64,000 nucleotides of DNA from a virus. A model generated the notes under the pieces. That model was not told the origin of the DNA. It ran no database searches and was given only the letters and a program-made list of their open reading frames with translations. A program made the position numbers and the translations under genes. This document shows positions 10,498-56,253 of this stretch, piece by piece. Each line of letters begins with the position of its first letter. The stretch's first letter is position 1. The stretch lies in the IMG/VR virus record IMGVR_UViG_2571042346_000003; one strand, 5' to 3'.

Positions 10498-10552
10498 GGT
10501 CTCTCCGGTTTTCGGGGTTACGCAAGAGCGCCTGATGCTCTCGCCACGCCGG

Positions 10553-10583
10553 TTACTTACCGGAAGGGGCCTGGATGTGTCGG
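10553..10583 (-). promoter_or_regulatory. Conserved element-specific promoter motif CCGAC-N14-TCCGGTAAGTAA, copy 1
   Basis: Exact motif, about 56 bp upstream of the baseplate J start. Confidence 0.75.
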
Positions 10584-10609
10584 AGGCGGGATGTGTCGGA
10601 GGCGGGATG
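10573..10609. repeat. 16-bp tandem duplication (GGATGTGTCGGAGGCG x2 plus partial copy)
   Basis: Copies at 10573-10588 and 10589-10604, then GGATG. Confidence 0.85.
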
Positions 10610-17561: not shown

Positions 17562-17592
17562 TTACTTACCGGAAGGCATGGCGAGGTGTCGG
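17562..17592 (-). promoter_or_regulatory. Promoter motif CCGAC-N14-TCCGGTAAGTAA, copy 2
   Basis: Exact motif, about 31 bp upstream of the hub gene. Confidence 0.75.
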
Positions 17593-22314: not shown

Positions 22315-22485
22315 CTATCGCCGTTCCGTTTGCTCACGTTCAAAATCAAGCTGCCGCTCGAGGGCCTCGACGAACTGACGCCGGACTCTGAGCGGCAGCG
22401 AGCGGGTTTCCGACCAGCCCCAGTGCAGTCCGCCGTAAGCGAGAAAGAATGCGTCGCTTACAAGCGAACTCCGGGGAACAAAAAA
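22315..22485 (-). CDS. -1 frameshift extension of the tail assembly chaperone (gpGT-like)
   Basis: The -1 frame reads FFVPRSSLVSDAFFLAYGGLHWGWSETRSLPLRVRRQFVEALERQLDFEREQTERR*, lacks its own start and RBS, and ends next to the TMP start. Confidence 0.75.
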   Translation of the reverse strand, partial: FFVPRSSLVSDAFFLAYGGLHWGWSETRSLPLRVRRQFVEALERQLDFEREQTERR

Positions 22486-23135
22486 GCCGGTTCTGCCTCC
22501 AGACGGGTGCGGATCTTGGTGCCGCAGCCATCGCATTCGGTTTCGACCGAGGTGTCGATTCCCGCGTCGACCCGCGACATCTCCTGTCGCAGCGCGTTGC
22601 GGTCACGCATCGACATTTCCGCCAGGCTCTTCTTGGAGGGAGCCTTGCCGTCGATGTCGAGGATACGGATGAGCATGGCCGAGCTGATGTTGGGCTCGCG
22701 CAGGCTGGCCAAACGTTTTTCCTTGTGGCCGTCGAGATATCCGAAGCGCACGGTTTTCTTCGAGCCGGGAAGCTTGAAGGCGAACTCGCGCTCCTCGCCG
22801 TAGGGGGTGACCTTGAGATCCTCGAGATTGATGGTCACGAAGTTGGTCATGCGGCAGGCGCTGTTCGGGCAGCTCAGCTCCAGCTCCACCTCGTCCCCCA
22901 GGGAAATCTGGCGCAGGCGGACCAGGGCGAACAGCCGGTCACCCGAGAGCAGGTTCATCACCTCGGAAAGATCGGGGGCGGTCTTCTCGCCCAGCCGGAC
23001 GAAACAGTTGCGGAGCACCTGGTTGATCGCCTCTCCGGAGCGGATCAGACGCTGGTTGGTGAGCAGTTCTTCCTCAGCCCCGGTCATTTCCCGGAGCTCG
23101 AGTTCAGTGCCGCTTGGCAGTTCAAAGCTGTACAT
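22458..23135 (-). CDS. Tail assembly chaperone (T4 gp26/gp51-like, with CxxxxC and CxxC), 225 aa
   Basis: ELREMTGAEEELL...DRLFAL..LR..S.G......CP..C pattern, located between tube and TMP. Confidence 0.75.
   Translation of the reverse strand: MYSFELPSGTELELREMTGAEEELLTNQRLIRSGEAINQVLRNCFVRLGEKTAPDLSEVMNLLSGDRLFALVRLRQISLGDEVELELSCPNSACRMTNFVTINLEDLKVTPYGEEREFAFKLPGSKKTVRFGYLDGHKEKRLASLREPNISSAMLIRILDIDGKAPSKKSLAEMSMRDRNALRQEMSRVDAGIDTSVETECDGCGTKIRTRLEAEPAFLFPGVRL
22479..22485 (-). promoter_or_regulatory. Slippery heptamer T TTT TTG (X XXY YYZ)
   Basis: In the chaperone reading frame GCT TTT TTG, 7 codons before the stop. Confidence 0.7.
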
Positions 23136-23150
23136 GGTCGATCCTCCGGT

Positions 23151-23612
23151 TTAGGTCCAGTATTGGAAGCAGATAGTGAGCTTCTCGATGGTGTTCTCGG
23201 TGTTCCCGCCCTCGAGCTCGTCGTATTCGAGCGCCTTCACCCAGGCCCCGTGCAGGGTCCAACGGCGGGTCTCGTTGCCGGTGCGGTCGTAACGGACAAC
23301 GTCGATGTCGCGCATGTAGTCGGCCGGAAGGCCGCCGGTGACGGCGTTCACGTCCACCTGTTTCTTGATCCATTCGCGGGCCGCCTCGTCGGAGCCGTCC
23401 TGCAGGTTGCCTTTCTCGAGGGTGATGTCCTCGAACTTGACCCGGCCCGCCACCTTCTGGTCGAACATCGAACCAGCCGGGGCAAAGGCCACTTCCTCGA
23501 ATTCGGTTTTGGGCTCCTGTCCCTTGTGGAACAGGGCCACGTCGAAGCCGTTTACCTCGATGGCGAACTGCCAGTTCTGGTAAAGGCTCTTGGGCATGTT
23601 TCCGCTTCTCAT
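23151..23612 (-). CDS. Tail tube protein (T4 gp19-like), 153 aa
   Basis: F.IEVNG...F...GRVKFEDITLEKG...W....AWVK motifs. Confidence 0.9.
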   Translation of the reverse strand: MRSGNMPKSLYQNWQFAIEVNGFDVALFHKGQEPKTEFEEVAFAPAGSMFDQKVAGRVKFEDITLEKGNLQDGSDEAAREWIKKQVDVNAVTGGLPADYMRDIDVVRYDRTGNETRRWTLHGAWVKALEYDELEGGNTENTIEKLTICFQYWT

Positions 23613-23627
23613 AGCCGTGTTCTCCCG

Positions 23628-25157
23628 TTAGATGATTTCTTTGAAGTCCGCGCCGGTGCTGGTCAGGATGAAGTTCAGCTCGATGAACTCCGCCGTCTTG
23701 GTCGGCTTGACGAACACGCGGGCCACCATTTCGTTGCGGTCGATGACCGCCGGGGTGTTGGTCTCCTCGTCGCACTGGAAAGCGAAGTCGTAGAGGCCAC
23801 CCTTGTCCTTGATGTCCTGCAGGAAGGGGTTGATCAGGCGACCGAGGGCACGCCAGGTCTGGGGATGGTTCGGCTCGAACACCACGAAGCGGGAGGATTC
23901 CGAGATGGCTTCCTCCATGTACATCATCAGGCGGCGCACGTTGATGCGGTCCACGGCCGAGGGCTGGCTTTGCAGTGTCTTCTGGCCCCAGATGTTGATG
24001 CCGGTGTCGGGGAACACGGCGATGACGTTGACCCCTTCCGGATAGAGCACATCGCGCTCGCCACGGCTGGTCTTGTAGGCCAGGGAGAGCGTGTTGAAGA
24101 TGCGGCCCCGGTCGATACCGGCGGGCGCGTTCCAGACGTTGGTCTTCTGGTCGCTGCGGGCGATGCAGCCCGCCACCGCGCCGCAGGGCGGCACCAGCTT
24201 CTTGCGCGAGTTGACCGGATCGCTGATCTCCAGCCAGGGGTAGTAGAGCGCCGCGTAGGAGGAGTTGAAGGCCGCGTGGCTGTACATCCCTTGTCCCTTG
24301 CGGAAGTCGACCGCTTCGAGCGGCTCCAGATGCATGGGCGTGTCGGCGATGAACAGCAGATCCTTGCGCCCTTCGGCATAGGCGATTCCGGCGTTGATTA
24401 CCGGCACTGTGGTGACGCCGGGAACCAGCAGCAGGTTCAGGGCGTCGATCTCGTCAAAGCCATAGAGGCCGGTATGCTGCGAGGGATCGCCGATGAAATC
24501 GGCATCGGCCAGGTCGGTCAGCCCGTTGTCGCCGCCGGTGAGCGTGAACACGCCCAATGCCGGACGGTCGCTGGGCGTTCCCGACGCTGCTGCCATATCC
24601 TGGACCAGGATGAAATCCGAACGGTCGTTGATTGCCAGCTCCACATGATTCGGCAGCGTCTCGTCCATGCTCAGATCCTTGAATACCTCGACCACATCGC
24701 CTTTATGCCGAACCACCAGGTTGAAATGGTTGGCTGGGTCAAGGGAGCCATCCTCGATGGAAACGGAGAGCCGGTCCCCCCAGACGCCTTCGTTCACGGC
24801 CTCGATCCGCAGGGCGTCGGCGGGCGTCGCCTCCCGGTTCTGCAGCACGATGGAAGATTTGAGCGCCGTCAGGGTGTCCCGGTCGGTGGAGTCGGTGAGA
24901 TGGGAGATGCGGGTGACGTAGAGGACCGATCCGCCGTTGTCGAAAAACGCCCGTGCGGCGTAGGCCAGATAGCTCTCGTTGATATAGGAGCCGAAACGGT
25001 TGATGAACTGCTCCCAGCTCGTCACCAGCACGGGCTTGTTGATCGGGCCTTTTTCGGCCACCCCGACCATGGCGGCCGACGAAGTCGAGATCTGCTTCAC
25101 ATAGAAACTGAAATCCGTTTCCCGGGTGTAAATCCCGGGCGATAGATAGGTCGGCAT
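23628..25157 (-). CDS. Tail sheath protein, 509 aa
   Basis: MPTYLSPGIY...VWNAPAG...RINVRRL...VVFEPN...VKPTKTAEFI canonical sheath motifs. Confidence 0.95.
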   Translation of the reverse strand: MPTYLSPGIYTRETDFSFYVKQISTSSAAMVGVAEKGPINKPVLVTSWEQFINRFGSYINESYLAYAARAFFDNGGSVLYVTRISHLTDSTDRDTLTALKSSIVLQNREATPADALRIEAVNEGVWGDRLSVSIEDGSLDPANHFNLVVRHKGDVVEVFKDLSMDETLPNHVELAINDRSDFILVQDMAAASGTPSDRPALGVFTLTGGDNGLTDLADADFIGDPSQHTGLYGFDEIDALNLLLVPGVTTVPVINAGIAYAEGRKDLLFIADTPMHLEPLEAVDFRKGQGMYSHAAFNSSYAALYYPWLEISDPVNSRKKLVPPCGAVAGCIARSDQKTNVWNAPAGIDRGRIFNTLSLAYKTSRGERDVLYPEGVNVIAVFPDTGINIWGQKTLQSQPSAVDRINVRRLMMYMEEAISESSRFVVFEPNHPQTWRALGRLINPFLQDIKDKGGLYDFAFQCDEETNTPAVIDRNEMVARVFVKPTKTAEFIELNFILTSTGADFKEII

Positions 25158-25159
25158 GG

Positions 25160-25417
25160 TTATTTCCTCCGCTTGCTGGTGGTCTTGGCCTCATCGGTTC
25201 CGGCGTCCTCGGTCGCCGTGGGCCTTTCCGGCTCCGGTTCCGCGCCGCCGGTCAGGTCGGTGATGCGCACCAGTCCGCGTTTTCCGGCGGTCTGGATCTC
25301 GGCGGAGAGGTCCTTGCGGGCGATGCTCTTGCGCTCTCGCGGTCCGAGGTGGAGGGTTCCCTGGCCGGAGAGGTTGAACGTCAGGGGTTGGAACTGCAGG
25401 TTTCTGATCTCGATCAC
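25160..25417 (-). CDS. Hypothetical protein, 85 aa
   Basis: GGAG RBS, tight packing. N-terminus resembles the ORF at 27310-27669. Confidence 0.6.
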   Translation of the reverse strand: MIEIRNLQFQPLTFNLSGQGTLHLGPRERKSIARKDLSAEIQTAGKRGLVRITDLTGGAEPEPERPTATEDAGTDEAKTTSKRRK

Positions 25418-25429
25418 GGTTGTTCTCCT

Positions 25430-25978
25430 TTACGGTTGAATGGTTCGTTGCTCTGTCACGTCGCCGTGAAACTGGAAGGTCCGGTCCCGGATCAGCCGAC
25501 CGTCGCGCAGGTCGCCGTCGTACACCGGGCAGGATTCGATGCGGATGCGTCCGGAGCTCTGCCGGAGATTGGAGAGGTTCACCCGGGTCAGACCGCCCAG
25601 AGGAACCAGTTCGGTGAGGTTCAGGCTGCCCTGGTCGGCGATGGCGATCTCCGGGTGAAGCTGGAGGAACCGCGATACCGACTCGTGAAACCCGAGCAGT
25701 TCGGCCTCCCGGTCCACGGTCACCACCAGGTCGAAATCGAGGTGATAGAGCCGGGGAAACCGGCACTCCTCGAAACTCAGCTCCGCGACATTCTTCTCGA
25801 ACAGGCGGCTCTGGCTGCGGCGGAAACGGTCTTCCGCCAGCTTCGGCCCCTGGAGGATGACGCTGGGGGTACGCTGGACCTCGAACAGGTCATCCGGGAA
25901 CACCAGCACGGTGTCCGGGTGGATGGCCTGCTTGGCCAGGCGGATCAGTGTTTCTGTGACGGTCTGTATCGTGCTCAA
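25430..25978 (-). CDS. Tail terminator/cap (Pvc16/DUF4255-like), 182 aa
   Basis: Position between neck and sheath, MSTIQTVTETL N-terminus, YHLDFDLVVT strand. Confidence 0.55.
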   Translation of the reverse strand: MSTIQTVTETLIRLAKQAIHPDTVLVFPDDLFEVQRTPSVILQGPKLAEDRFRRSQSRLFEKNVAELSFEECRFPRLYHLDFDLVVTVDREAELLGFHESVSRFLQLHPEIAIADQGSLNLTELVPLGGLTRVNLSNLRQSSGRIRIESCPVYDGDLRDGRLIRDRTFQFHGDVTEQRTIQP

Positions 25979-26002
25979 GGGACGCCTCCGTTTTCTGCCT
26001 GG

Positions 26003-26033
26003 TTACTTACCGGAAGCGCTGGCGATGTGTCGG
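26003..26033 (-). promoter_or_regulatory. Promoter motif CCGAC-N14-TCCGGTAAGTAA, copy 3
   Basis: Exact motif, about 25 bp upstream of the 25978 start. Confidence 0.75.
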
Positions 26034-26037
26034 AGGA

Positions 26038-26523
26038 TCAAAGCGCGGAGCGGATCGCCTCGCGATAGTTCTGGAGGATCTGTTCGCGGTACTTCTCCAT
26101 CACCGGATGCAGAAAGGGTCTTGCGGGGATGATGATGGTCGCGCCGTTCGGATGGTTGATGGTGGCCCCGTACTCCATGACGGCACCGATGTTCACCATG
26201 TCTTCCCCGTCCTTGTTGACGGTGCCGCGCAGCAGGCCGACGAACGCCTTGTCGGCCATGATCTTCTGGGTGATGGCGTTGACGAGAAAGCCGGTGTCGA
26301 TGAGCGCCTTGCTGGAGCCTTTGCGCTCGATGGTGCTTGCGGCGAGTTTCACGAAGGCCTGTCCGCCCGGGGCCTGCGAGCGAATCCCCCGCTGGATCTC
26401 GCGCACCAGAAAAAGGGCGTTGCGGATCGTGGCCTGACGCAGGGCCGTGGCCAGGCGCGGCCCCATGCCGGTGGTCAGCTTGGCGCGGGCCTTGTCCCAG
26501 TCACCGGTTCGCCTAACGCCCAT
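26038..26523 (-). CDS. Neck/virion morphogenesis protein (Mu gpG/HK97 gp10-like), 161 aa
   Basis: LAASTIERKG...LIDTGFL...EYG...IPARPFL motifs. Confidence 0.8.
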   Translation of the reverse strand: MGVRRTGDWDKARAKLTTGMGPRLATALRQATIRNALFLVREIQRGIRSQAPGGQAFVKLAASTIERKGSSKALIDTGFLVNAITQKIMADKAFVGLLRGTVNKDGEDMVNIGAVMEYGATINHPNGATIIIPARPFLHPVMEKYREQILQNYREAIRSAL

Positions 26524-26872
26524 TGAGCTTCACCAGTTGCAGGTTCTTATGGGTGACGGTGCCGAAGAAGTGTTCTTCTTCCACACTCTGTATGCGATAG
26601 GTTTCCCTGTCTGAGGCCAGGCGGTCTTCACCCCGGACATCGGCATCCGGAAGGACACAGGCAAGCGCGTCGATCTTGCCGCTCAGCTCCTCCGGCGGGG
26701 TTTCGTTCAGTTCGAGGGGGATGACGGAGATTTCCGTGTATTCGGCATCGTCGGTGCCGTAGAGCCGCTCGCCGGGAACCACGCGCAGGACGCGTGCTGT
26801 CTGGCCCGAGGAGAGGATCAGCCGGGCGACGTCGGCCACGGCTTCGGCGCGTTCCCGGTCATTCAACAACAT
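26513..26872 (-). CDS. Head-closure/head-tail joining protein, 119 aa
   Basis: Position in the neck cluster, DRL....ETYRIQSV beta pattern. Confidence 0.55.
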   Translation of the reverse strand: MLLNDRERAEAVADVARLILSSGQTARVLRVVPGERLYGTDDAEYTEISVIPLELNETPPEELSGKIDALACVLPDADVRGEDRLASDRETYRIQSVEEEHFFGTVTHKNLQLVKLNGR

Positions 26873-27323
26873 CGAGATCGATCCCTTGTTCGTAGATGAC
26901 CGGCGTAAGGCCGCTCGGGGTCAGGATGTAGGCTTCCTGATCGAGCTGGGTGTCCGGACGCAGCTCGGTGAGCCGCTGGCGGTAGTCGGCGAGCAGATCG
27001 GCCTCGAGCTTGGCCCAGTGGCCGGGCTGGCCGGTTTTGTCCACCCGCTTGTCGCCGCTGGAAAAGGAGAAGGCGTTGGCGGTGGCCGAACGCATGACCT
27101 GGCAGGCGTGGATCTGCGCCATGATCACCAAAAGCTCGCGGACCTCGCCGGTGGGATCGGGGGTAATCTCTCCGGCCGTAATCGTCAGCGATTGGTCGAG
27201 GTCACGGCTGACACGGAAAACGGCCTTCCGGACGCATCTCTCCAGAGTCTGGTCCTCGAAGAGAGATGCGCCCGGATCGGACAGGTCGAGCCGCAGGTCG
27301 GCGATCAGGTCACTCAGCAGCAC
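26859..27323 (-). CDS. Head-tail adaptor, 154 aa
   Basis: LIADLRLDLSD...FEDQTL helical adaptor pattern and position. Confidence 0.55.
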   Translation of the reverse strand: MLLSDLIADLRLDLSDPGASLFEDQTLERCVRKAVFRVSRDLDQSLTITAGEITPDPTGEVRELLVIMAQIHACQVMRSATANAFSFSSGDKRVDKTGQPGHWAKLEADLLADYRQRLTELRPDTQLDQEAYILTPSGLTPVIYEQGIDLDVVE

Positions 27324-27669
27324 CTTGCAGGCCCTCCAGACGGCTCTTGAGCGCGTCGATCACCGTGCGGCGTTTTTCGGTGTCCATGTAGCCTTTGAGG
27401 GTCTCCGGATTGGCCTCCTCGTTGACCCTGGAGATGGCGTCGGTGGCGGAGAGTTTGCTCAGGTCCACCGGTTCCGCGTCCTGGTCGGGTTCTGGAGGGG
27501 CGAGCGGTTCCTGCTTCGGTTTGTCGGCCATGGCCAGGCGGCCATTCTTGAGCGCCGCCTGGATCTGCTTGGTGAGGCGTTCCACCTCGACCACCTGACC
27601 GGGCTTGAGTTTCAGCCCGGCGTCGGGGATCACCAGAACGCCGGGACGGATGTTCTTGATTCGATTCAT
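27310..27669 (-). CDS. Hypothetical head-associated protein, 119 aa
   Basis: Follows the capsid gene. C-terminal helical hairpin E...EKRRTVIDAL. Confidence 0.55.
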   Translation of the reverse strand: MNRIKNIRPGVLVIPDAGLKLKPGQVVEVERLTKQIQAALKNGRLAMADKPKQEPLAPPEPDQDAEPVDLSKLSATDAISRVNEEANPETLKGYMDTEKRRTVIDALKSRLEGLQGAAE

Positions 27670-27688
27670 CTCACGTCACCTCCTAAGA

Positions 27689-28552
27689 TTACGGAACCAG
27701 TTTGACTTTGGCCATGATGTCGGGGCGGGTAATGCCCTGGCCGATCTCGGACCACACCAGCCAGCCGGTCTTGAAGCGGGTCTTCTGGTCGATGGACTCC
27801 GTCTTCAGGTTTTCGCGCACCGGCATCTTCCCGACCTCTTCATCCGGGACGATGATGATCTCGTCCAGCGGCATGGAGGCGGTCAGCAGAATGCCGCCGG
27901 TGCCGTAGTTCTTGATGACACCCTTCTGGCGCAGCTCGAGCTTGGTCTGGGGATCGAGGTTCCAGCCGCGCATGTCGTTGAACCGACGGCCACGCATGAC
28001 GACGTACTTCACCGACAGCTCCAGGTCCTCGATGATCGAGATGGCCTCGTTCAGTGCCTCCTCGGTGAGCAGGTCGCCGGTAACCTCGATGATGTTGGTC
28101 GCCGGGATGGCCGAGGAGAGCACCGAGATGGTGCGGCGATCCATCTCCTTGCGGATGGCGTCGGCGGCGCTGGTCTGGATGTCCATCAGCGTGCCGATGT
28201 TGCCGTTCTTGAGAACGGAAACGTCCACCATCGGGTTGGAGTGGATGCGGTTGGTGGGGAACTCGACCTCGTCCTTGCCCACCTCCTGCTCCTGGGCGTC
28301 GCCGTCCTTGCTGATCCAGTGGGCCTTGACGGTCGGTTTCTTCTGATAGACCGGACGTTCGCCCTTGGGCAGCGTGTGCTTGGTGAGCAGCAGCGAGGAG
28401 ATCTCCTTGCGCTTGATCTCCTGTTCGATGGGCGCGGCGATGGCGGCGGCAAGCGCCCGCATGCCTTCGGGCGACTCGAGAGCCTCGCTCATGAGCCGCG
28501 CCATGGTTTCCATGTATTCCTGGGAATGGATCTTCAACTGATTGGTTTTCAT
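27689..28552 (-). CDS. Major capsid protein (HK97-fold, compact), 287 aa
   Basis: Size, position after scaffold and decoration genes, GWLVWSEIGQGITRPD C-terminus. Confidence 0.75.
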   Translation of the reverse strand: MKTNQLKIHSQEYMETMARLMSEALESPEGMRALAAAIAAPIEQEIKRKEISSLLLTKHTLPKGERPVYQKKPTVKAHWISKDGDAQEQEVGKDEVEFPTNRIHSNPMVDVSVLKNGNIGTLMDIQTSAADAIRKEMDRRTISVLSSAIPATNIIEVTGDLLTEEALNEAISIIEDLELSVKYVVMRGRRFNDMRGWNLDPQTKLELRQKGVIKNYGTGGILLTASMPLDEIIIVPDEEVGKMPVRENLKTESIDQKTRFKTGWLVWSEIGQGITRPDIMAKVKLVP

Positions 28553-28570
28553 GTGCGTTGGCTCCTTGGG

Positions 28571-28933
28571 TTAGACGAGCAGGCGGAATTTGAGGACGCC
28601 GCTCTGTACGGAAATGGCGTGGGCGACGACGTGCTCTCCGGCCGCGACACCGTTGGTCAGGCGACCGCCCGCTGAAACTTTCAGGTCGTCTCCGGCGACG
28701 ACGGTCCCTTCGAAGGCGTCGGTCTCGTAGACACCGCCGTCACAGTAGATGCCGGGCATTTCGCCACCGGCGTAGTCCTTGATCAGGATGCCGAAGGAGC
28801 GCTTGGTGGGATCGGTGTTGACGGCGAACAGGTCGTCGCCGACCACGCGGACCACCTGGCCGAGTTGGCCGTCGCCCTGGATGTGGCCGTCGCCATAGGC
28901 GAGGCTGCGGTGACACGGATTGATGAATGACAT
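28571..28933 (-). CDS. Capsid decoration/cement protein, 120 aa
   Basis: Small Gly-rich beta protein (YETDAF...GDDLKVSAGGRL) directly upstream of the MCP. Confidence 0.6.
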   Translation of the reverse strand: MSFINPCHRSLAYGDGHIQGDGQLGQVVRVVGDDLFAVNTDPTKRSFGILIKDYAGGEMPGIYCDGGVYETDAFEGTVVAGDDLKVSAGGRLTNGVAAGEHVVAHAISVQSGVLKFRLLV

Positions 28934-28945
28934 GGTGTTTCCTCC

Positions 28946-29533
28946 TTATGCGTTGATTTCCGAGTGTTCGGGAGAGTCCTCGCCGACACGGTTGCGGTAA
29001 GCGGCCATGAACCCGTCGCGCAGGCGGTCCTCGAGCGATACCTTGCGGTCGTCCACATCGTGGGGCCGGACACCGGCGTCGCTGCGCAGCGGGGTTTCCG
29101 TCGATGCCTTGGCGGCGGGCTTGCCGCCCTGGTCGCTGTCGGTGGGTTTCTCTTCCTTGTCCTTGTCAGCTTTGGCCGATTTGGGCAGGCGTTCGTAAGC
29201 GGCCTCGGTGGCGGCGAAGGCTTCGTCGGACAGTTCGGCCAGGCGTTTCAGTTCGGCTTCCCGGTCCTCCTCGGAAGCGAAAGAGAGTCCCTGCTTTTCC
29301 AGCCGGGTGAGCAGCTTCTTGGCCCGGGAGCGGCAGGCGACCGCCTTTTGTTCGGCTTCCAGTTCCTGGACTCGTTTCTGCAGCTCGGCCACCTGGGCTT
29401 TGAGCTGCCGGTTTTCCTTTTCCAGGTCGGAAACGCGGGCAGGATCGCCTTCCTGCTGGGCCGGTTTCTTCTTGGCCGCGTCAGATTCAGTCTTGGCGGC
29501 CGGTTCATCGGTAGGTTTGGTTTTGTCTTCCAT
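28946..29533 (-). CDS. Internal in-frame start giving a stand-alone scaffold protein, 195 aa
   Basis: GAAGGAG followed by 8 nt then ATG (MEDKTKPTDE) inside the fusion gene. Confidence 0.6.
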   Translation of the reverse strand: MEDKTKPTDEPAAKTESDAAKKKPAQQEGDPARVSDLEKENRQLKAQVAELQKRVQELEAEQKAVACRSRAKKLLTRLEKQGLSFASEEDREAELKRLAELSDEAFAATEAAYERLPKSAKADKDKEEKPTDSDQGGKPAAKASTETPLRSDAGVRPHDVDDRKVSLEDRLRDGFMAAYRNRVGEDSPEHSEINA

Positions 29534-31354
29534 CGTGAAATCTCCTTCGGGTTGGGATTGGTCGGGCTGGCTCTGAAGGGACGCCACCTGCAGAATCCTG
29601 GCGTTCTCGTCCGCGCCTTTGCGGTCGAGCAGTCCCAGTCCGGTGAAAGTGACGCCGTGCAGAATCTCGAAAACGGGTTGGCCGTTGAAATCACGGCCCT
29701 TGAATTTGCGCAGGTGTGTGCAGTAGTCGGCCTTGTTCTGGAAGCGCTTGTGGCAGACCGAACATTCGCCTTCCTGGTAGTCGCACTCCATGGAGACTTG
29801 GGAGATGATCCCGCGCTTCATCAGCTTGTAGGCCAGCCGGGCGGCCGGGGTGTCGTGGACGTACAGCTCGCCGACGCATTCCACGCGGCCGCCGTTGTCG
29901 TCCTCCAGGTAGTCGGCGGCGACGATGCCACCGACGATGTCGTTGAACTCCTGCGAATGCTGCAGATCGACCTTCTTGTTCACGGCCGTCATGTGCCGAC
30001 CGGACAACTCCTCAGCGGTGAAGTGGTCGCCGTTCTTGTTGGTCCCGGTGCGGCAGAGCACGAAGCTGAACTGAGGGTCGCCCGCCGAGCCGACATCCAT
30101 GGCCTCGGTCGCGAGGCGTTCGCCTTCACCCAGCCGGATGTCCACGGGAATGCTGGTGTGAAAGTTCGCTGCGGCGGCCATCGGAACGGGTTTCTCCTCC
30201 CGCTCGGCGCTGGCCTTGGCCCCGGGAGCGCAGACGAACAGACGCTCCTTGGCATTGGAAGCCTCGCCGTGCTTGGAGGTGATGGCGTAGTGGTGATCCT
30301 TGGACTTCATCCGGCTCTGTTTGCCGAAGGAGCCGATGATCCGCTTCATCTCCTGCTCGTTGGGATAGGCGTGATCGCGGTAGGAGATCAGCCAGTTCGG
30401 GATGTGTTTGGCGTTGCCGAGAAAGGTCTGGAAGAACTCGCTGGCGTTGGCCTTGGTGACGGTCTTGTGGTCGGTCTCGTAGTACTTGACCTTGGTGTCG
30501 GCCTTGATTTCGAGCCCTTCCCAATAGGTCATGAGCCCCTCCACGAAGTGGTAGGCCCGCTCGTAGTTGGTGGTCGAAAACTCGGTGGCGTAAGGCGGGT
30601 CGAAGTAGGCCAGATCCGCCTTGGCTTTCGGCAGCAGGTCGTTGATGTCCTGCCGGTGCGCCTTGTTCTCCTTGTCGTTGTCGAAGACCAGGGCGTTGAT
30701 GCGCTGCAGGTTCTTGCGCAGACGATCCTTGAACTCGTCGGGGGTGTCCTGGCGGCGGCCATAATCGGTGGACGACGAGAAGTGGCCGAAGCCGCCCTTG
30801 CCGCTCATGCAGGTTTTGCCGAGGCCGAACAGGGCGATGTCTTTCTTGAAGCCGGAGAGCTTGTCGCAGTTGGCGCGGATGGTGTCGATCAGCGCATGGA
30901 CGCCCTTGGCGAAGAAAATGCCCTTGAAGTTGTCCTGGACGAAGCTGCCCGCCTTGGCGTTGTCGGCCAGAAGCGCTTCGATCTCGTCCTCGCTCAGGCG
31001 AACCGAGTTGTTCTCGATGATCGCCTTGGCGGCATGGTGGCAGTAGCGGAGCCGGTCGTTGGCGATGACCTGCAGGCCCTTGGTCTTGTACATGTAGGCC
31101 ACGACCGCAGATCCCGAAAAGGCGTCCAGCACCGTGCCAGTGCCTTCCGGGGTATGCTTCCAGATCCAGTCGACGAGCTTCTGCTTACTGCCGATGTAGT
31201 TGGTGATGTACTTGGGGCGCTTCTCGGGAGGGAGCTCTTCAGGAGCGGGCTGTTCGGCGGCCTCGGTCCCGAGCGCATCGGGATCGAGAGTCAGCGCCGC
31301 ATCGGCCTCCAGTAGAAACGCCAGCCTTTCCAGGTCTGTGGCGAACAGTTCCAT
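28946..31354 (-). CDS. Fusion protein: N6-adenine DNA methyltransferase (D12/COG3392-like) + prohead protease with Cys/His cluster + scaffold, 802 aa
   Basis: One uninterrupted ORF. MTase motifs YIGSK, VLDAFSGS, YFDPPY. Protease-like region NKNGD.F...VDLQH...VSMEC...CSVC...YC.HL...EILHGVTFTG. Acidic/basic coiled-coil C-terminus. GGAG RBS before ATG at 31354. Confidence 0.8.
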   Translation of the reverse strand: MELFATDLERLAFLLEADAALTLDPDALGTEAAEQPAPEELPPEKRPKYITNYIGSKQKLVDWIWKHTPEGTGTVLDAFSGSAVVAYMYKTKGLQVIANDRLRYCHHAAKAIIENNSVRLSEDEIEALLADNAKAGSFVQDNFKGIFFAKGVHALIDTIRANCDKLSGFKKDIALFGLGKTCMSGKGGFGHFSSSTDYGRRQDTPDEFKDRLRKNLQRINALVFDNDKENKAHRQDINDLLPKAKADLAYFDPPYATEFSTTNYERAYHFVEGLMTYWEGLEIKADTKVKYYETDHKTVTKANASEFFQTFLGNAKHIPNWLISYRDHAYPNEQEMKRIIGSFGKQSRMKSKDHHYAITSKHGEASNAKERLFVCAPGAKASAEREEKPVPMAAAANFHTSIPVDIRLGEGERLATEAMDVGSAGDPQFSFVLCRTGTNKNGDHFTAEELSGRHMTAVNKKVDLQHSQEFNDIVGGIVAADYLEDDNGGRVECVGELYVHDTPAARLAYKLMKRGIISQVSMECDYQEGECSVCHKRFQNKADYCTHLRKFKGRDFNGQPVFEILHGVTFTGLGLLDRKGADENARILQVASLQSQPDQSQPEGDFTMEDKTKPTDEPAAKTESDAAKKKPAQQEGDPARVSDLEKENRQLKAQVAELQKRVQELEAEQKAVACRSRAKKLLTRLEKQGLSFASEEDREAELKRLAELSDEAFAATEAAYERLPKSAKADKDKEEKPTDSDQGGKPAAKASTETPLRSDAGVRPHDVDDRKVSLEDRLRDGFMAAYRNRVGEDSPEHSEINA

Positions 31355-31410
31355 CAACGTCTCCGGTCAGTTTGCTGTGCTCTCCGCGACCTGCGGGGAG
31401 CGTTCAGCGG

Positions 31411-31441
31411 TTACTTACCGGAAGCGTCGGCGATGTGTCGG
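31411..31441 (-). promoter_or_regulatory. Promoter motif CCGAC-N14-TCCGGTAAGTAA, copy 4
   Basis: Exact motif, about 57 bp upstream of the MTase-protease fusion. Confidence 0.75.
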
Positions 31442-31582
31442 AGGGTGACGGTGAATTTCAGCGGGCGGAGTCCGGCCGGGAATTTCCTGGAAGTCGCCGA
31501 GATTTGGCTTGAAAGTCGGTCTGCTATTCGTTATCTTGTGTTATCATGTTTTATTACGGAATCCAAAGAAGCGGTGACTGAC

Positions 31583-31813: not shown

Positions 31814-33553
31814 ATGCCGAGCCTGATACAGCCAACATTATTCGACCTACTTGATGTTCCGGCCTTTCCGAGACCTGCGGCGGTCACGAACGCGATTGAA
31901 ACACTGGCTTCAAACAGTGGCATCGAGGCGCGAGGGGCAATCTTTACGCGCATCGAGGTCGTTGATTTTATTCTCGACCTGGTTGGCTACGTCGCCGATG
32001 AGCCATTGCACCACCTTCGCATTCTGGAGCCCTCTTTTGGCGAAGGCGATTTCCTTCTTCCGATTATTGAACGACTCCTTTCTGCGTGGCGGGAAAATGG
32101 CGGGAATGTTTCTTCCGCTGGCGTTGAATTGGGAGAAGCCATTCGTGGCGTGGAGCTGCACAGGGAAACCTTTGTCTCAACACGCAAGATTGTCGTCAAC
32201 CGCCTTATCAAGGAGGGGATTTCGGCATCCGTGGCTTCAGAGCTCGCCGACCAATGGCTGATTCAGGGGGACTTCCTTCTTGAGCGGCAAAGCGCCCGCT
32301 TTGATTTCGTTGTCGGTAATCCGCCATATGTCCGGCAAGAGCTGATTCCAGCGCCGTTGTTGTCTGAATACCGTCGCCGCTATCAGACGATGTATGACCG
32401 CGCCGACCTCTACATTCCCTTCATCGAACATTCGCTGTCACTTCTCGACAAAGGCGGAACTCTTGGTTTTATCTGCGCCGACCGCTGGATGAAAAACCGC
32501 TATGGCGGTCCATTGCGGGAGTTCATAGCAAGAGGTTTCCATCTCAAAGCCTATGTCGATATGGTGGATACCAACGCCTTTCATTCCGAAGTCAGTGCCT
32601 ATCCCGCGATCACCGTCATTGAGAAGACGAAAGCAGGCGCAACCCGGATTGCCCACAGGCCCAAGATTGAGAAAAAGGCGTTATCTGCTGTTGCCGCAGA
32701 AATCAGGTCTGAAGCCCTGTCCAAAGACTCATCTGTCCGGGAAATGGTTGGAGTGGCAAGTGGTTCGGAACCTTGGCTTTTGGAATCATCGGATCAAATG
32801 TCGCTGATTCGACGTATCGAAAGCCACTTTCCCGCACTAGAACATGCTGGCTGTAAGGTCGGAATTGGTGTGGCCACTGGCGCTGATAAGGCGTTCATCG
32901 GGGATTTCGAATCTCTTGACGTCGAGCCCGACCGAAAACTTCCTCTTGTGGCGACCCGTGACATTCAATCCGGTGAAGTCGTCTGGCAAGGTCAAGGAGT
33001 TATCAATCCGTTCGCAGATGACGGCGGCCTTGTCGATTTGCGGGATTATCCCAAATTGGGCAGCTACCTTGAAGAGCGCAAGGCGGTCATTGCAAAGCGC
33101 CACTGTGCCCAGAAAGCACCGTCAAATTGGTATCGGACGATTGACCGGATATGGCCGGAGCTCACCAGTAAACCAAAGTTGCTGATACCGGATATCAAAG
33201 GCGAGGCTCATATCGTTTTTGAGCCCGGCAAACTCTATCCGCACCACAATCTTTACTATGTAATCTCGGATACCTGGGATTTGCGGGCATTGCAGGCGGT
33301 GTTGCTCTCCAGCATCGCCAAGCTCTTTGTGGCAACCTACTCGACGAAAATGCGCGGAGGCTACTTTCGCTTTCAGGCTCAGTACCTGCGGCGCATCCGT
33401 ATCCCATTCTGGCAGGACGTATCCGAGAATCTCCGGAGGGAATTGATCCATGCCGCGACCTTCCGCGATCTTGACGCCTGTAACAGAGCGGTTTTCAAAC
33501 TTTACAAACTGAACCAAGAAGAACGATCCGCTCTTGGCGGCAATGGAGAATAA
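31814..33553 (+). CDS. Type II N6-adenine methyltransferase, M.PaeR7I/XhoI-like (Eco57I/TaqI gamma class), 579 aa
   Basis: [11 protein letters not shown] and VVGNPPYVR motifs, adjacent to a PaeR7I-like endonuclease. Confidence 0.85.
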
Positions 33554-33555
33554 CA

Positions 33556-34296
33556 ATGGCAATTGATCTTGTGGATTACGAGCGCAAGGCTCATGAAGCT
33601 GTGCAGGCGTTTTGGGGAAACCGGGAAGCCGCCAGGCAGAAGCAAATTGAATCGGGCAAGGCCGACCAGGGCGAACGCGCAGGCGTGACCGCTGGCAAAA
33701 ATATGGATGGGTTCATTGCTTTGATACTCGATATCATTCGAGCCAATGGACTCGCCCATGCCGACATCCATCAGAAACGCGCCGTCCTGACGCTGCCCGG
33801 TTTCTTTCGGCCAACCAAACTCTGGGATCTGCTGGTCATCCACAAGGGTGAACTGATCGCGGCTATCGAACTGAAAAGCCAGGTCGGACCTTCCTTCGGC
33901 AACAACTTCAACAACCGGACGGAAGAGTCCATCGGCACAGCCCATGATTTATGGACAGCATACCGAGAAGGGGCATTCGGCAAACAGCCCCGCCCATTTG
34001 TAGGCTGGCTGATGCTGGTTGAGGACGCGCCCGAATCCCGGTCTCCGGTCAAGGACAACTCGCCTCATTTTCCCGTGTTCGAGGAATTCAAGGGCGCATC
34101 CTATCTCCAGCGGTACGATTTGCTGTGCCAGAAGTTGACTCAGGAACAGCTCTACACAACCGCTTCGGTAATCGCCTCTCCGCGAACAGCCGCTGACAGC
34201 GGTGATTTTTCCTCGTTGTCATCAATGACCAGTCTCAAGACCTTCGTCTCCTCTCTTGCCGGGCACATCGCAGGCGAAGCGGCAAGACTTGAGTAG
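33556..34296 (+). CDS. PaeR7I/XhoI-family type II restriction endonuclease (expected site CTCGAG), 246 aa
   Basis: [26 protein letters not shown]...[16 protein letters not shown] and [20 protein letters not shown] match my recollection of PaeR7I. Confidence 0.85.
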
Positions 34297-34299: not shown

Positions 34300-35862
34300 T
34301 CAGGAACCTGCCTTCACCTGCCGGAGAATCCACTTCCTCAACGTTTCCTCGGTCGCCAGCCGGATCAACGCCTCGACGAGCTGCTGCTTGTTCTTGAGGA
34401 TGCCGATACCGTGCTTCTGTTTGGCCGCCGCGAGTTCCTTGCCCATCAGGCCGCTGTGGTCCACGCCGGGCTCCAGCTTGTCCAGCAGCTCGATGGTCTC
34501 CTGCTTGGTCATGTTGAGGGAGATGCCGTTTTCCTTCGCCATCTCCTTGAGCTGCTGGGCGGTCATGCCCTCCAGCCCCTCGGCGGGAGGGATCTTCGCC
34601 ATCTGGGCGGCGAGCAGCTTGGCCTGTCTGAGTTCCGCCTGCTTCAGTCCCAGCAGCTCGACCAGTTCTTCCTTGGTCCGCAGCAGACCGATCTTGTGTT
34701 CCTTGAGCTTGGCGCTGAGCGCCGCTCCGGCCAGGTCACCGTGATCGATCCCCGGTTCGGCCAGATCGAGCAGCTTGATGAAATCGGCCTTGGTCCGGGC
34801 AATGGCCACGCCGTTCTGTTTCGCCAGGGTCTGGAGCTGTTTGACCGTCAGCGAACCGAGGTCGGCGATGTCGCCGGTTTCAAAGGCGCTCTTGAGCTTG
34901 GCGTTCTCCTTGGCCTGGGCATCGGCCATGCCTTCCAGCACATGGGGCGGTAGAATGCAGGCGTCCCCCTGCGATGCCTGGGCGGCGGCCTTGGTTGCCA
35001 TCTCGCTACCGCAGACGGTCATCGGCCAGGCCACGATGTTGGTACAGCGGCAGTGCGGATGCGCGGGTTGCTGGGGGAACTTGTCGATGGGAAAGGTCTT
35101 GCCGTCCAGGCCGCCGCAGACCGGGCACATGCGCTCATCCTCCATGGCCAGCCATTCCAGTTTCTGGATGCCGACCCGCTCGTGGAATTTGAGCCTGCCC
35201 ATGTTGTGGGCGCGGAGGACCTCGGTGCGGGCGATCATCTCCATGCGGTACTGAGCCTTGTTGAACACCCGGCTTCCGGCCTGGCGAAAGGAGTCCTTGT
35301 CGATGATCACCTTGCCCATATCCCGGACGATGTCGTCGGCTCCCTTGCCCGTGGCGACGCCGTTCAGGATGGTGCGCTTGATGCCGTCTGCGAGTTCGCG
35401 GTGAACGTCACCGGCGAGTGTGAGGTTGTACTGCGCCATGAAGTCGAGAGCATTGGTGTCGACGATGGTGAACACCTTGGTGGCCAGCTTGTCGATGCCT
35501 TCGGGTTTGAGGTCGGCGTAGAACGGCAGCGCCGCGTCGGCGAGTTCGCCGATTCCCTGCTGGATGCCGAGCTTGAAGGAGTCCTTGGTTGTCTTGCGAA
35601 AGACCAGGGTCTGCTCCCGCTTGAGCCGCTTCATGGTGTCGTCGAGTTCGAGCTGGAGCTTTTCCAGCCCTTTGAGGGCGGCGAGCTTGTTGTCCGGCAG
35701 GGAGCCGAGGGAGCGGTACTGGAGAATGGCGCGGGCGACCTCGTCTTCGGCCTGTTTCAGTGCCTGGGTGAGTTGGGCCGTGACCTGGTCGTTGTAGCGG
35801 TTGCGGGCCGTCAGGCTTTTCAGGGTGGCCGCCTGGATGCGCTGCTTGAGGTCCGACGGCAT
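34300..35862 (-). CDS. MuF/SPP1 gp7-like minor head protein with a C-terminal extension of duplicated HeH/SAP-like motifs, 520 aa
   Basis: IARTEVLRAHN...DERMCPVCGGLDG...PAHPHCRC MuF motif, followed by two roughly 70-aa repeats. Confidence 0.85.
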   Translation of the reverse strand: MPSDLKQRIQAATLKSLTARNRYNDQVTAQLTQALKQAEDEVARAILQYRSLGSLPDNKLAALKGLEKLQLELDDTMKRLKREQTLVFRKTTKDSFKLGIQQGIGELADAALPFYADLKPEGIDKLATKVFTIVDTNALDFMAQYNLTLAGDVHRELADGIKRTILNGVATGKGADDIVRDMGKVIIDKDSFRQAGSRVFNKAQYRMEMIARTEVLRAHNMGRLKFHERVGIQKLEWLAMEDERMCPVCGGLDGKTFPIDKFPQQPAHPHCRCTNIVAWPMTVCGSEMATKAAAQASQGDACILPPHVLEGMADAQAKENAKLKSAFETGDIADLGSLTVKQLQTLAKQNGVAIARTKADFIKLLDLAEPGIDHGDLAGAALSAKLKEHKIGLLRTKEELVELLGLKQAELRQAKLLAAQMAKIPPAEGLEGMTAQQLKEMAKENGISLNMTKQETIELLDKLEPGVDHSGLMGKELAAAKQKHGIGILKNKQQLVEALIRLATEETLRKWILRQVKAGS

Positions 35863-37370
35863 CAGCGGGGCTCCCGGCGGTCGATGAAACGACAGGCCGG
35901 GGCGTCGAAGGTGCGCTCGCTGTTGTGAACCCGGCAGTGGTTGGTGTCAGCAATGAAGTGGCTGCACTCGTCGCACACGGCAGCAATGCCGGTGGACTCC
36001 AGGTCGCCCGACCAGACCAATGCCGCCTCCGCCGTGGGTTCATCGTCCTCGGCCGGAATCCCGAGCATCTTCCGGGCGCGAGGCACGCTGAGGATGCCGG
36101 AGACGACCATATCCACCACCGGCTTCACCTGTTTCTCGTCCATCAGGTCGATCTGCTTACGTTCGGTCTCGCGGTTGGCGGCCTCGATGTCCGGGTCCAG
36201 GTCCATCTTGAGCTGAAGGCTGGAGCGGCTGATGAGTTTGCGGTCGTAGAGTTCGATGAGGAGCTTCTTGAAATCGACCGCGTCGCTGGGGTCGAGGTCG
36301 TTGAAGATGAACTGGATGCTCTTGTCGCCGTGGCCGTTCAGCTCCATCCAGTCGTCGAACACCCAGTCGAGGAGCTTGCGTGCGGCCTGTTTGATCTCGC
36401 GGATCATGACCATCATCTTCTGCATGCTCACCGAGGCAGTGGCGAAATTCGGACCGTCGCCGGTCACCAGCGAGCGAGACAGACCCAGGGCTACCACGAT
36501 GTCTTCCTTCACCTCCTTTACCTTGTCCTCGACGTTGAGGACCTGACCGTCGGTGCCGTGGGTTTCGACATTGACGTAGAACGGGACCACCAGGCCACTT
36601 TTCATGTCCATCTTGTTGACCATGTCGCGAACCTGTTCGAGCATCCGCTGGTCCGGCATCACCATCTTCTGGCCGAACGCGCCGCCCACCTTGAGCAGAC
36701 GGAACGGCGTGGCCCAGCGCTTGGCGATGGCCTGTTCGGCCCGGCGGTAATCGCGCAGCAGTTCGATGGCTTGAAAGGCGGGAAGCACGAGGGAGTTGCC
36801 CCTGGGCGAAAAGGCGGGTGCGTCCCATTTGAGATGGACCACCTGCTCGACGGGCAGCGGGATGGATTCGCCACCGCCGGGGGTGTCCTCGGGAAATTGC
36901 CGGGCCTCGATCAGTTCGCCCTGGGCGTATTTGACCTTGACCGAAACCGGGTTGACACAGACCAGCTCCTCGATGTCCTGGCCGGACTTGGTGAAGCGCT
37001 TGAAGCCGATGGCGTCGCCTTTCACCAGGAGCTGAAGAACCATGTCCTTGATGAACTGCGAGACGTTCAGCCGCCAGGCGGCCTCCAGAGCCTGTTCCTT
37101 GAGGTTCTCGTCATCGCTGGTGATCTTGATCTCGTCGCCCACGGCGAAAGTGCGCCAAGAGTTGACGCAGTTCTTCACCAGCGGCTCCTCGACGTAGTAT
37201 TCCCAGGCCTTGCGGGCGCGTTCTTCCCAGGTGGCCGGAATCGCTTCGGCGGCGTTGACCTTGCTGAAGGCGGCCGAGTCGAGCGCTGCCGCTGCGGCCA
37301 GCGGCGCGATGACAAAGCCGGTGGTGTCCAGGCTTTCGGGTTGTTCGTCCTGATGGGCGGTGCTTTCCAC
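35862..37370 (-). CDS. Portal protein, 502 aa (GTG start)
   Basis: Position between terminase and MuF, VVHLKW...PRG.SL, LSRSLVTG.G.NFATA. AGAGG RBS. Confidence 0.8.
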   Translation of the reverse strand: MESTAHQDEQPESLDTTGFVIAPLAAAAALDSAAFSKVNAAEAIPATWEERARKAWEYYVEEPLVKNCVNSWRTFAVGDEIKITSDDENLKEQALEAAWRLNVSQFIKDMVLQLLVKGDAIGFKRFTKSGQDIEELVCVNPVSVKVKYAQGELIEARQFPEDTPGGGESIPLPVEQVVHLKWDAPAFSPRGNSLVLPAFQAIELLRDYRRAEQAIAKRWATPFRLLKVGGAFGQKMVMPDQRMLEQVRDMVNKMDMKSGLVVPFYVNVETHGTDGQVLNVEDKVKEVKEDIVVALGLSRSLVTGDGPNFATASVSMQKMMVMIREIKQAARKLLDWVFDDWMELNGHGDKSIQFIFNDLDPSDAVDFKKLLIELYDRKLISRSSLQLKMDLDPDIEAANRETERKQIDLMDEKQVKPVVDMVVSGILSVPRARKMLGIPAEDDEPTAEAALVWSGDLESTGIAAVCDECSHFIADTNHCRVHNSERTFDAPACRFIDRREPR

Positions 37371-37444
37371 GTGATCCTCTCGGTAGTTTCGGCCATGACA
37401 GCCGCACATCCGGCCCGTGTGGGCCGAACCCGGCTCGATGCCGG

Positions 37445-37475
37445 TTACTTACCGGAGATGGGTGGAAAGCGTCGG
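37445..37475 (-). promoter_or_regulatory. Promoter motif CCGAC-N14-TCCGGTAAGTAA, copy 5
   Basis: Exact motif, about 75 bp upstream of the portal start. Confidence 0.75.
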
Positions 37476-43874: not shown

Positions 43875-43965
43875 GTGGAAATCCTGCGGAATATTGTTTT
43901 CCCAAGCCGGGATGCGGGGCGGGAGGCCGATTTAGCCTCCAAACGCGCTCCCGCCGGTTCAGGGG

Positions 43966-43996
43966 TTACTTACCGGAAGCGGCGGCCAACTGTCGG
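43966..43996 (-). promoter_or_regulatory. Promoter motif CCGAC-N14-TCCGGTAAGTAA, copy 6 (overlaps the stop codon of the Mor-like gene)
   Basis: Exact motif. TCC GGT AAG TAA encodes the final S-G-K-stop. Confidence 0.75.
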
Positions 43997-45018: not shown

Positions 45019-45058
45019 GGTTTCAGGCTCCAGAAATACGGGTTAATCGCTTTTCCCG

Positions 45059-45089
45059 TTACTTACCGGAGCTGCCCTGAAACCGTCGG
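45059..45089 (-). promoter_or_regulatory. Promoter motif CCGAC-N14-TCCGGTAAGTAA, copy 7
   Basis: Exact motif, about 41 bp upstream of the 45018 start. Confidence 0.75.
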
Positions 45090-56219: not shown

Positions 56220-56250
56220 TTACTTACCGGAGGCGGAGCCGATGCGTCGG
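56220..56250 (-). promoter_or_regulatory. Promoter motif CCGAC-N14-TCCGGTAAGTAA, copy 8
   Basis: Exact motif starting 3 bp after the sigma gene stop. Confidence 0.75.
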
Positions 56251-56253
56251 AGA

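Follow-up and report, generated by a model that had tools for sequence, protein, structure and literature searches.

A phage gene that joins a predicted Dam-family adenine methyltransferase, a predicted capsid maturation protease and a coiled-coil scaffold in one reading frame probably encodes a head-assembly polyprotein

A gene of a temperate phage in which a Dam-family N6-adenine DNA methyltransferase (MTase) is joined in frame to head-assembly functions is described here from the IMG/VR virus record IMGVR_UViG_2571042346_000003. The window, that is, the whole stretch of 64,000 nucleotides that was analysed, is part of this 90,363-bp record, which has direct terminal repeats, and the gene is located in it on the minus strand (28946..31354). 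The evidence presented below indicates that it probably encodes a head-assembly polyprotein, with an N-terminal helix, the MTase, a linker, a protease with a zinc knuckle and a coiled-coil scaffold arranged in this order in a single chain. The open reading frame (ORF) comprises 802 amino acids (aa) from the ATG at 31354 to the stop codon at 28946-28948, the same length as the matching database proteins, and an alternative TTG start located one codon upstream, directly followed by this ATG, would extend it to 28946-31357. Residues are numbered in the protein P0001 with the TTG as residue 1, and database numbering is one less.

A first-pass annotation, made by reading the DNA sequence without database searches, had claimed a single 802-aa ORF at this place. 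The ORF is real, although its minus-strand orientation was omitted in that annotation, and all the motifs named there are present (LGTEA at residues 29-33, YIGSK at 54, DAFSGS at 78, DPPY at 253, LATEA at 415-419, CSVC at 532-535 and CTH at 546-548). The G+C content at third codon positions is 0.83 in this frame, similar to that of the neighbouring genes, and the family phrog_27806 covers the protein from end to end with 1721 bits. Because the databases name this protein solely 'DNA adenine methylase', the head protease and the scaffold of the whole phage group are left unannotated.

The region comprising residues 46-375 (30233..31222, minus strand) was assigned to the D12/Dam family of N6-adenine DNA MTases by Pfam, by its AlphaFold2 (AF2) model and by Foldseek. 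The Pfam D12 family (PF02086) matched residues 54-293 with E=3.4e-25 and 89.7 bits, against a cutoff of 22, and the motifs appear in the order of this alpha-type family, YIGSK being followed by motif I (DAFSGS), a helical insert at about 100-245 and motif IV (DPPY). Residues G56, K58, D78, G82, D253, P255 and Y256 were invariant in 48 of 48 sequences of the MTase family, in which F80 was at least 90% conserved, and D78, F80 and G82 together with DPPY were also invariant across 14 fused homologues of 37-68% identity. The AF2 model of residues 1-395, constructed with 48 homologues, reached a predicted local distance difference test score (pLDDT) of 90.6 and a predicted template modelling score of 0.87, and its top 26 Foldseek matches were Mcbe1, Escherichia coli Dam, T4 Dam and DpnM (E from 1e-6 to 6e-4). 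The identity to these Dam enzymes was 12-16%, so that specificity for GATC should not be assumed, and a phmmer search with the whole fusion protein gave no MTase or protease match among the sequences of the PDB. When the window was compared with the copies found in two bacterial chromosomes, the ratio of nonsynonymous to synonymous substitution rates (dN/dS) was 0.035-0.056 for the MTase, similar to that of the protease (0.015-0.07), a range that points to purifying selection acting on the MTase. Motifs, model and substitution pattern are those of a complete but divergent Dam-family enzyme, which is predicted to be active.

The MTase is preceded by a short segment (residues 2-45; 31223..31354, minus strand) that contains a helix kept in the fused homologues, with the consensus F.T....L.FLLE.DA.L in their alignment, as well as the LGTEA sequence (31259-31273). 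The AF2 model placed helices at residues 8-22 and 26-33 of this segment with modest pLDDT. After the MTase, a linker rich in Ala, Ser, Pro and Lys (residues 376-400; 30158..30232, minus strand) varies in length and sequence among the relatives, in which 0-2 extra modules of about 90 aa are found.

The central domain (residues 401-600; 29558..30157, minus strand) was assigned to the prohead serine proteases on the basis of its AF2 fold and of two invariant residues, His467 and Ser522. In the model of residues 385-640, built with 35 homologues, the core had a pLDDT above 93, and alignment with VIA-align gave a Z score of 11.3 to T4 gp21 (5jbl; 130 residues, root-mean-square deviation 2.9) and of 10.8 to the assemblin of varicella-zoster virus (VZV; 1vzv), the herpesvirus assemblins ranging from 8 to 10.8. 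Protease entries occupied ranks 1-36 with Z of at least 6.5, and the first unrelated fold appeared at Z 5.4. A search of BFVD with the same model gave 229 matches at E<=1e-3, and many of the top 50 are named prohead protease. The best one (E=4.9e-18) was gp19 of Bacillus phage G, which, with related prohead proteases (phrog_18299, phrog_2774), is also the nearest phage relative of the protease in sequence (tblastn E=5e-11 over residues 438-604), consists of 300 aa without any MTase, and matches both the 'head maturation protease' family phrog_18299 (E=2.6e-19) and phrog_27806 (E=5e-15). Several 'head maturation protease' PHROGs matched the domain weakly (E 0.007-0.07). The candidate catalytic pair His467 and Ser522 was invariant in 35 sequences and lies inside a weak match to the Pfam family Peptidase_S78 (residues 462-529). 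As modelled, the middle domain is thus a capsid maturation protease of the T4 gp21/assemblin fold.

A C2H2-like zinc knuckle (residues 530-552; 29702..29770, minus strand) is inserted in the protease right after the strand that carries Ser522. Its four ligands (C532, C535, C546 and H548, with the spacing C-x2-C-x10-C-x-H) were invariant in 35 of 35 family members, including those without MTase, and the AF2 model shows at this point a strand pair followed by a helix. Compared with the PDB, the profile of the protease family (A1) matched nothing but C2H2 zinc fingers, among them the fingers of ZBTB20 (E=1.6e-5), and Pfam zf-C2H2 was found at the knuckle with E=0.048.

The protein's C-terminal part is a scaffold in which an acidic and Lys-rich spacer, a coiled coil (residues 640-690, matching many coiled-coil families), a conserved helix with the sequence AF.ATE.A and a conserved tail follow one another, the last 40 residues being conserved in the alignment of fused homologues. 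This part may also be translated separately, as a nested frame of 195 aa from Met609 to Ala803 (28946..29533, minus strand) begins at the boundary between protease and scaffold, where Met is kept in most homologues. The ATG at 29533 is preceded, at a distance of 8 nt, by an internal Shine-Dalgarno sequence, GAAGGAG (29542..29548, minus strand). A Shine-Dalgarno sequence and a start codon were also found at the equivalent site of L008 (GAAGGAGG...ATG), L009 (GGAGGA...GTG) and L006 (AAGGAG...ATG), and so the signal for a nested start is present in four of four divergent loci, the window included. This start should give a scaffold-only protein, and the arrangement implies, by analogy with other nested scaffold genes, an abundant scaffold-only product and a minor full-length product sharing one capsid-binding tail, which should dock against the inner surface of the major capsid protein (MCP). 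Another internal start at Met393, which would yield protease and scaffold without MTase, was considered and set aside; it has a GGAGGAG sequence about 12 nt upstream, but this Met is not conserved and is replaced by Leu in P0123.

The domain layout described above agrees with the first-pass annotation, in which a complete-looking N6-adenine MTase, a prohead-protease-like domain with a CxxC...CxH cluster and a coiled-coil scaffold had been recognized. The Pfam D12 match, the Dam-like model and the invariant catalytic motifs bear out the first of these claims, the structural matches to T4 gp21 (Z 11.3), VZV assemblin (Z 10.8) and the prohead proteases of BFVD the second, and the coiled-coil families matched by residues 640-690 the third. 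The C2H2-like identity of the cysteine cluster and the nested start at Met609 had been missed in it.

An exhaustive search for relatives among representatives at 50% identity yielded 741 proteins at E<=1e-10, and the domain layout was established for the best 150. Of these, about 19 full-length clusters have all three parts, MTase, protease and scaffold, on a single chain, with identities of 39-74% in the MTase and 40-75% in the protease, and several fragments also cross the junction between MTase and protease. The homologues are not nearly always split into two genes, which had been proposed as one of the findings that would speak against the fusion. One short entry, P0149, was considered as a stand-alone protease-scaffold protein and discarded, as it is a contig-end fragment in which the frame remains open upstream and gives no evidence of a split gene. 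The gene order is also preserved in P0143, a relative of about 40% identity located in a 275-kb contig, in which portal, MuF, fusion gene, small ORF and MCP follow one another as they do in the window, so that both the fusion and its synteny, which the first-pass annotation had proposed to examine, are kept.

Other relatives occupy the same slot without MTase (P0170 in L010, P0171 in L012 and P0221 in L011). In these three loci no MTase gene was found directly upstream, and Pfam identified no family in the N-terminal extensions of the MTase-less proteins. Two tandem MTase domains are present in P0122 and P0124. The module of about 90 aa, which matches no Pfam family and is missing in the protein of the window, appears in 0-2 copies before the protease of the relatives (P0125, residues 470-590; P0126 and P0138, 400-600; P0132, 365-440; P0170, 20-100; P0171, 1-190) with the pattern W-E-E-T-x-N-E-[IL]-R-[FY]-R-V-R-D-P ... 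Q-S-[YL]-R-F. Since forms with no MTase and forms with two share the same slot, the MTase is best regarded as an optional N-terminal passenger that does not belong to the assembly machinery. In a poorly resolved maximum-likelihood tree of the protease domain, forms with and without MTase are intermixed; at least 4 changes of the MTase label are required on branches with good support, and the label clusters no more than it does after shuffling. A single origin of the fusion was considered, and with at least 4 changes on the protease tree neither a single gain nor multiple gains are claimed. Two proteins of BFVD, A0A6J5N5R9 (679 aa) and A0A6J5RFH1 (622 aa), matched the protease model with E of about 1e-9 to 1e-8; these phage proteins bear the names 'Ferritin/DPS domain containing protein' and 'DNA-binding protein Dps', and other fusions of a cargo to the protease may therefore exist.

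Similar L-x-T-E-A sequences on both sides of the MTase had been pointed out in the first-pass annotation. The second of them, LATEA (residues 415-419; 30101..30115, minus strand), precedes the first strand of the protease core by 15 residues. The literal sequences LGTEA and LATEA were considered as conserved sites and rejected, because they are not conserved as such and only a degenerate class, [LMIVF]-x-[ATSG]-[EQ]-A, to which both belong, is enriched. This class, with a family background of 0.0015 per residue, was found upstream of the N-terminal MTase motifs in 21 of 64 windows, where 3.6% would be expected, and upstream of the protease cores in 11 of 30 windows, against an expectation of 3.9%, which represents an enrichment of about 9-fold just before both modules, with many near-misses in addition. 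Similar strings, L-Q-A-E-A-x-W, precede the 90-aa modules. The Glu at position P1 of the motif resembles the specificity of gp21 and of the phiKZ-type proteases. The L-x-(A/T)-(E/Q)-A junctions are candidate cleavage sites, and the odds that cleavage takes place at them fall slightly short of even. The MCP carries a sequence resembling the motif, LMSEA (residues 20-24), partly conserved in the relatives.

In the mechanism that we propose, two products would be made from the gene, the full-length protein and the shorter scaffold-only protein starting at Met609. Both would co-assemble with the 287-aa MCP, in such a way that a minority of the scaffold positions would bear protease and MTase inside the procapsid. 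The protease would then cleave its own chain and the scaffold, probably at the L-x-(A/T)-(E/Q)-A motifs, the scaffold fragments would exit, and the MTase would be left free in the head. From there it would ride with the DNA and, in the next host, methylate the genome on its arrival, or else it would have methylated the progeny DNA before assembly. The first-pass interpretation, a capsid-delivered anti-restriction or epigenetic system, is partly supported, the support being for the conserved fusion in the head-assembly slot. The steps of the proposed scheme do not deserve the same confidence. Incorporation of the MTase-protease-scaffold protein into the procapsid is quite likely, whereas it is possible but doubtful that the MTase is retained, ejected and gives protective methylation once the next cell is infected. 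Methylation during packaging is kinetically unlikely, because, as we reason, the capsid has no supply of S-adenosylmethionine (SAM) and the turnover of Dam-type enzymes is slow. A more ambitious form of the scheme, in which the gene encodes a self-processing cargo-protease-scaffold protein, the MTase is freed in every mature head by cuts of the built-in protease at conserved L-x-A-E-A junctions, then ejected and used for pre-emptive methylation, and the N-terminus of the protease acts as an exchangeable cargo dock, appears rather improbable. The cargo of such a dock would be one or two MTases, the 90-aa modules and, in other phages, perhaps Dps/ferritin.

Several observations weigh against the polyprotein and its proposed processing. 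The match to Peptidase_S78 reached 17.4-19.3 bits (best E=1.3e-3), below the Pfam cutoff of 21, and for this reason membership in S78 is not claimed and the assignment refers to the fold superfamily only. The junction motif is degenerate and falls in segments predicted as helical or modelled with low confidence; it is also present in the MTase-less relatives, so that it may be structural and not a cleavage site, and the copy near the protease is not a site dedicated to MTase release. The scattering of the MTase label over the protease tree, with the changes that it forces, means that the fusion is dispensable for head assembly. Finally, a few tens of copies of a slow, SAM-dependent MTase, whether acting in the capsid or after ejection with the DNA, may be too few for timely protection of a genome of about 90 kb.

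One alternative to a functional fusion is an artefactual ORF, or two neighbours fused recently and by accident through a lost stop codon or a frameshift, and its likelihood is close to nil. Short 'stand-alone' database entries do exist, and P0149 is one of them, but it proved to be a contig-end fragment, and no support for an artefact was found. Isolates and metagenomes supplied more than 120 clusters (90% identity) whose proteins, 798-803 aa long, are 97-100% identical to the fusion; the same frame is carried by hundreds of independent assemblies, and the divergent homologues also stay fused. A stop or frameshift between the domains, which the first-pass annotation had proposed to look for in read data, was absent from the independent contigs that span the junction. 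A 64-kb contig of an independent isolate covers the entire ORF with 6 substitutions and 0 gaps, and a contig from a sludge metagenome crosses the MTase-protease junction with 0 differences. The sole indel seen was a deletion of 12 nt in total (29483-29496), in a contig from a metatranscriptome library, which keeps the frame and affects the acidic and Lys-rich spacer past the protease, just after the nested start. Contigs from RNA libraries (metatranscriptomes) span the fusion gene, and they were not counted as expression because such libraries may include DNA. A megablast search with the gene among 50,697 phage records, a set from which near copies may have been left out, gave 0 matches, and tblastn of the fusion against the phage records gave distant partial matches only. 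It is also very improbable that the MTase-like domain is non-catalytic and serves as a DNA-binding or structural module in the head, for example in organising or anchoring the packaged DNA. The C2H2-type zinc knuckle in the adjoining protease domain does hint at contacts with nucleic acids, yet the SAM-binding motif and DPPY are invariant, the Dam-like fold is complete and modelled with high confidence, and dN/dS is low. The conservation of the fusion, the integrity of the contigs and the low dN/dS lead us to reject both the artefact and the dead domain.

A more serious competitor is a late MTase that acts in the cytoplasm and is never delivered, methylating the newly replicated phage DNA in the producer cell ahead of head assembly or during it. 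The fusion would then only tie its synthesis to an abundant late head gene and provide for its disposal, by degradation or by expulsion together with the scaffold. We consider it unlikely on balance. The gene lies behind a repeated promoter-like motif of late type, SAM is found in the cytoplasm and not in the capsid, and many phage MTases, such as T4 Dam and P1 Dmt, act on progeny DNA before packaging; the MTase is moreover optional in the related head genes. However, placement in the operon would by itself give the same timing without any covalent fusion, and the fusion has been kept over about 19 divergent clusters, together with tandem-MTase forms and a conserved junction motif. Attachment to the minor, protease-containing product also limits the dose, which would be odd for an enzyme in charge of bulk methylation.

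The first-pass annotation had stated that no such fusion was known to have been described, and the full-text literature searched, in which subscription journals were not covered, contains no account of a fusion between an MTase and a prohead protease or scaffold. The closest parallels are the nested genes C/Nu3 of lambda, I/Z of Mu and UL26/UL26.5 of herpes simplex virus, in which the protease is placed in the procapsid by a scaffold C-terminus shared with the scaffold protein, and then cuts itself and the scaffold. The gene described here resembles them in having protease and scaffold in one gene with a putative in-frame start for the scaffold alone, and it differs from them in the 330-aa MTase (two in some relatives) located before the protease and in the zinc knuckle. 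The protease of lambda, gpC, is of another family (ClpP/SppA-like). To our knowledge, no nested protease-scaffold gene carries a foreign enzyme. In T4, the internal proteins and Alt possess capsid-targeting sequences that are cut by gp21, and ejection proteins are also found in phiKZ-like phages and SPN3US. Such cargoes reach the prohead by way of the scaffolding core and are trimmed there, after a Glu in short motifs, by a prohead protease of the gp21 fold. The fusion would share with these cargoes the entry through the scaffolding core and a protease with the gp21 fold, and its x-(A/T)-E motif followed by A resembles the (S/A/G)-x-E class, if the specificity is as we suppose; in contrast to the T4-type cargoes, which are separate proteins with short targeting peptides, the cargo would here be a covalent part of the protease-scaffold protein.

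Phage P1 provides the precedent for a head-packaged anti-restriction protein containing an MTase, DarB (PMC5512222). DarB-like MTases are members of the EcoKI/TaqI family that nearly always occur together with LPD36 and an SF2 helicase (Iyer et al. 2017, PMC5512222), and it is to MuF or portal domains, not to a protease-scaffold, that polyvalent proteins are joined (PMC5512222). The fusion has in common with the DarB-like modules that a DNA adenine MTase domain is found in a late or head gene region; for these modules, packaging in the head and action on the injected DNA against restriction have been shown in P1 and predicted for the others. It does not fall in the DarB class, since its MTase is of the D12/Dam family and no helicase domain was found in the Pfam scan. 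The route would also be different, DarB being incorporated via the DarA/Hdf pathway and the fused MTase via the protease-scaffold.

The genomic context is that of a head gene module. Nearly all the genes around the fusion ORF are on the minus strand, and they include a terminase (39065-40588, minus strand), a portal protein (35862..37409, minus strand; phrog_2739 with E=2e-83 and Pfam portal families), a MuF-like minor head protein of 520 aa (34300..35862, minus strand; Pfam Phage_Mu_F with E=8.7e-17), an ORF of 120 aa directly 3' of the fusion (28571..28933, minus strand) and the MCP of 287 aa (27689..28552, minus strand; phrog_2522 with E=2.2e-97), which has no long delta domain. Further minus-strand genes code for neck and tail-completion proteins, sheath (23628-25157), tube and a tape measure protein of 1211 aa. 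Among the scanned ORFs of the head module, from portal/MuF to MCP, the fusion is the sole candidate for protease and scaffold, and its position between the portal/minor head proteins and the MCP is the same in L003, L006, L010 and L012. The first-pass annotation had placed it in the protease/scaffold slot between MuF and the decoration and capsid genes. The head-module position is confirmed, but the fusion ORF does not adjoin MuF, because a restriction-modification (R-M) cassette of XhoI type lies between them (31814-34296, plus strand, about 2.5 kb, 53% GC). The 120-aa ORF has no family match, family searches gave no evidence of a decoration protein, and its slot is occupied in all relatives.

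The R-M cassette contains an Eco57I/TaqI_C-type MTase of 579 aa and a protein of the XhoI endonuclease family (E=2e-106). At the same site, the copy from Mangrovibacter carries another cassette (DUF4160, DUF7424, zinc ribbons and HTH_17) and L006 only two small ORFs. The sequence CTCGAG occurs 27 times in the window and GATC 456 times, about twice a rough expectation from base composition of about 220, so that neither of them is avoided. Two other genes that interrupt the phage modules of the window probably serve as cargo or in defence, one for an AAA_14/DUF4143 ATPase, located between portal and terminase (37670-38980, plus strand), and one for an AbiEii-like AAA_21 ATPase near the replication genes (46105-47451, minus strand). 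The MuF-like protein, with 520 aa in the window, has 1529 aa in L003 (1711-6300) and 1460 aa in L006 (1724-6106), differences in size suggesting that a second head-internal protein is variable in this lineage, in the way of polyvalent/MuF-toxin proteins.

A promoter-like repeat of 36 nt is located 5' of the fusion ORF (31409..31444, minus strand), as revealed by blastn-short of the upstream region against the window. Longer copies are found on the minus strand at 26001-26036, 43957-43986, 10550-10586 and 56220-56252, and the TCCGGTAAGTAAC core, or most of it, appears alone on the same strand at 37442-37456, 17562-17575 and 45058-45070. The repeat is bipartite (CCTCCGACACATC ... TCCGGTAAGTAAC) and has about eight copies, all of them on the minus strand; the copies that were placed against the ORF table are located just upstream of genes. 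The late-type promoter copy reported in the first-pass annotation is therefore a real repeat, and its function as a promoter is presumed. Logan contigs of four runs end exactly at 31409-31444, which fits a repeat longer than the assembler word and flanked by variable cargo.

The head-tail block of the window (18946-31478), which spans 12.5 kb, is 95.3% identical in nucleotide sequence to the chromosome of Kiritimatiella glycovorans (CP010904.1; L002:9877-22407) and 96.5% identical over 12.5 kb to that of Mangrovibacter phragmitis (CP134782.1; L003:9905-22409). The Kiritimatiella block begins about 90 nt upstream of the promoter-like motif, with host genes before it, and corresponds to a truncated prophage. 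Proteins of 97-98% identity are assigned to Pasteurella, Geoalkalibacter, Desulfovibrionaceae, Desulfatitalea, Thiovibrio and Chromatiaceae. Judged from these identities, the spread of this phage module across phyla is very wide and recent.

If the MTase rides into the capsid, the fusion would constitute a second delivery route for an anti-restriction or epigenetic enzyme, mechanistically distinct from that of P1 DarB, and the N-terminus of the protease would be a natural dock for head cargo, useful for the engineering of capsids as protein carriers. Protection by a delivered MTase would also help to explain the near-identical copies of the head-tail module in chromosomes of Kiritimatiellota, Gammaproteobacteria and Desulfobacterota, an explanation to which we assign a low likelihood. 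Entry of the MTase into the capsid, if real, would in any case allow one to test whether methylation carried by the virion is connected with the unusually wide spread of this element among taxa.

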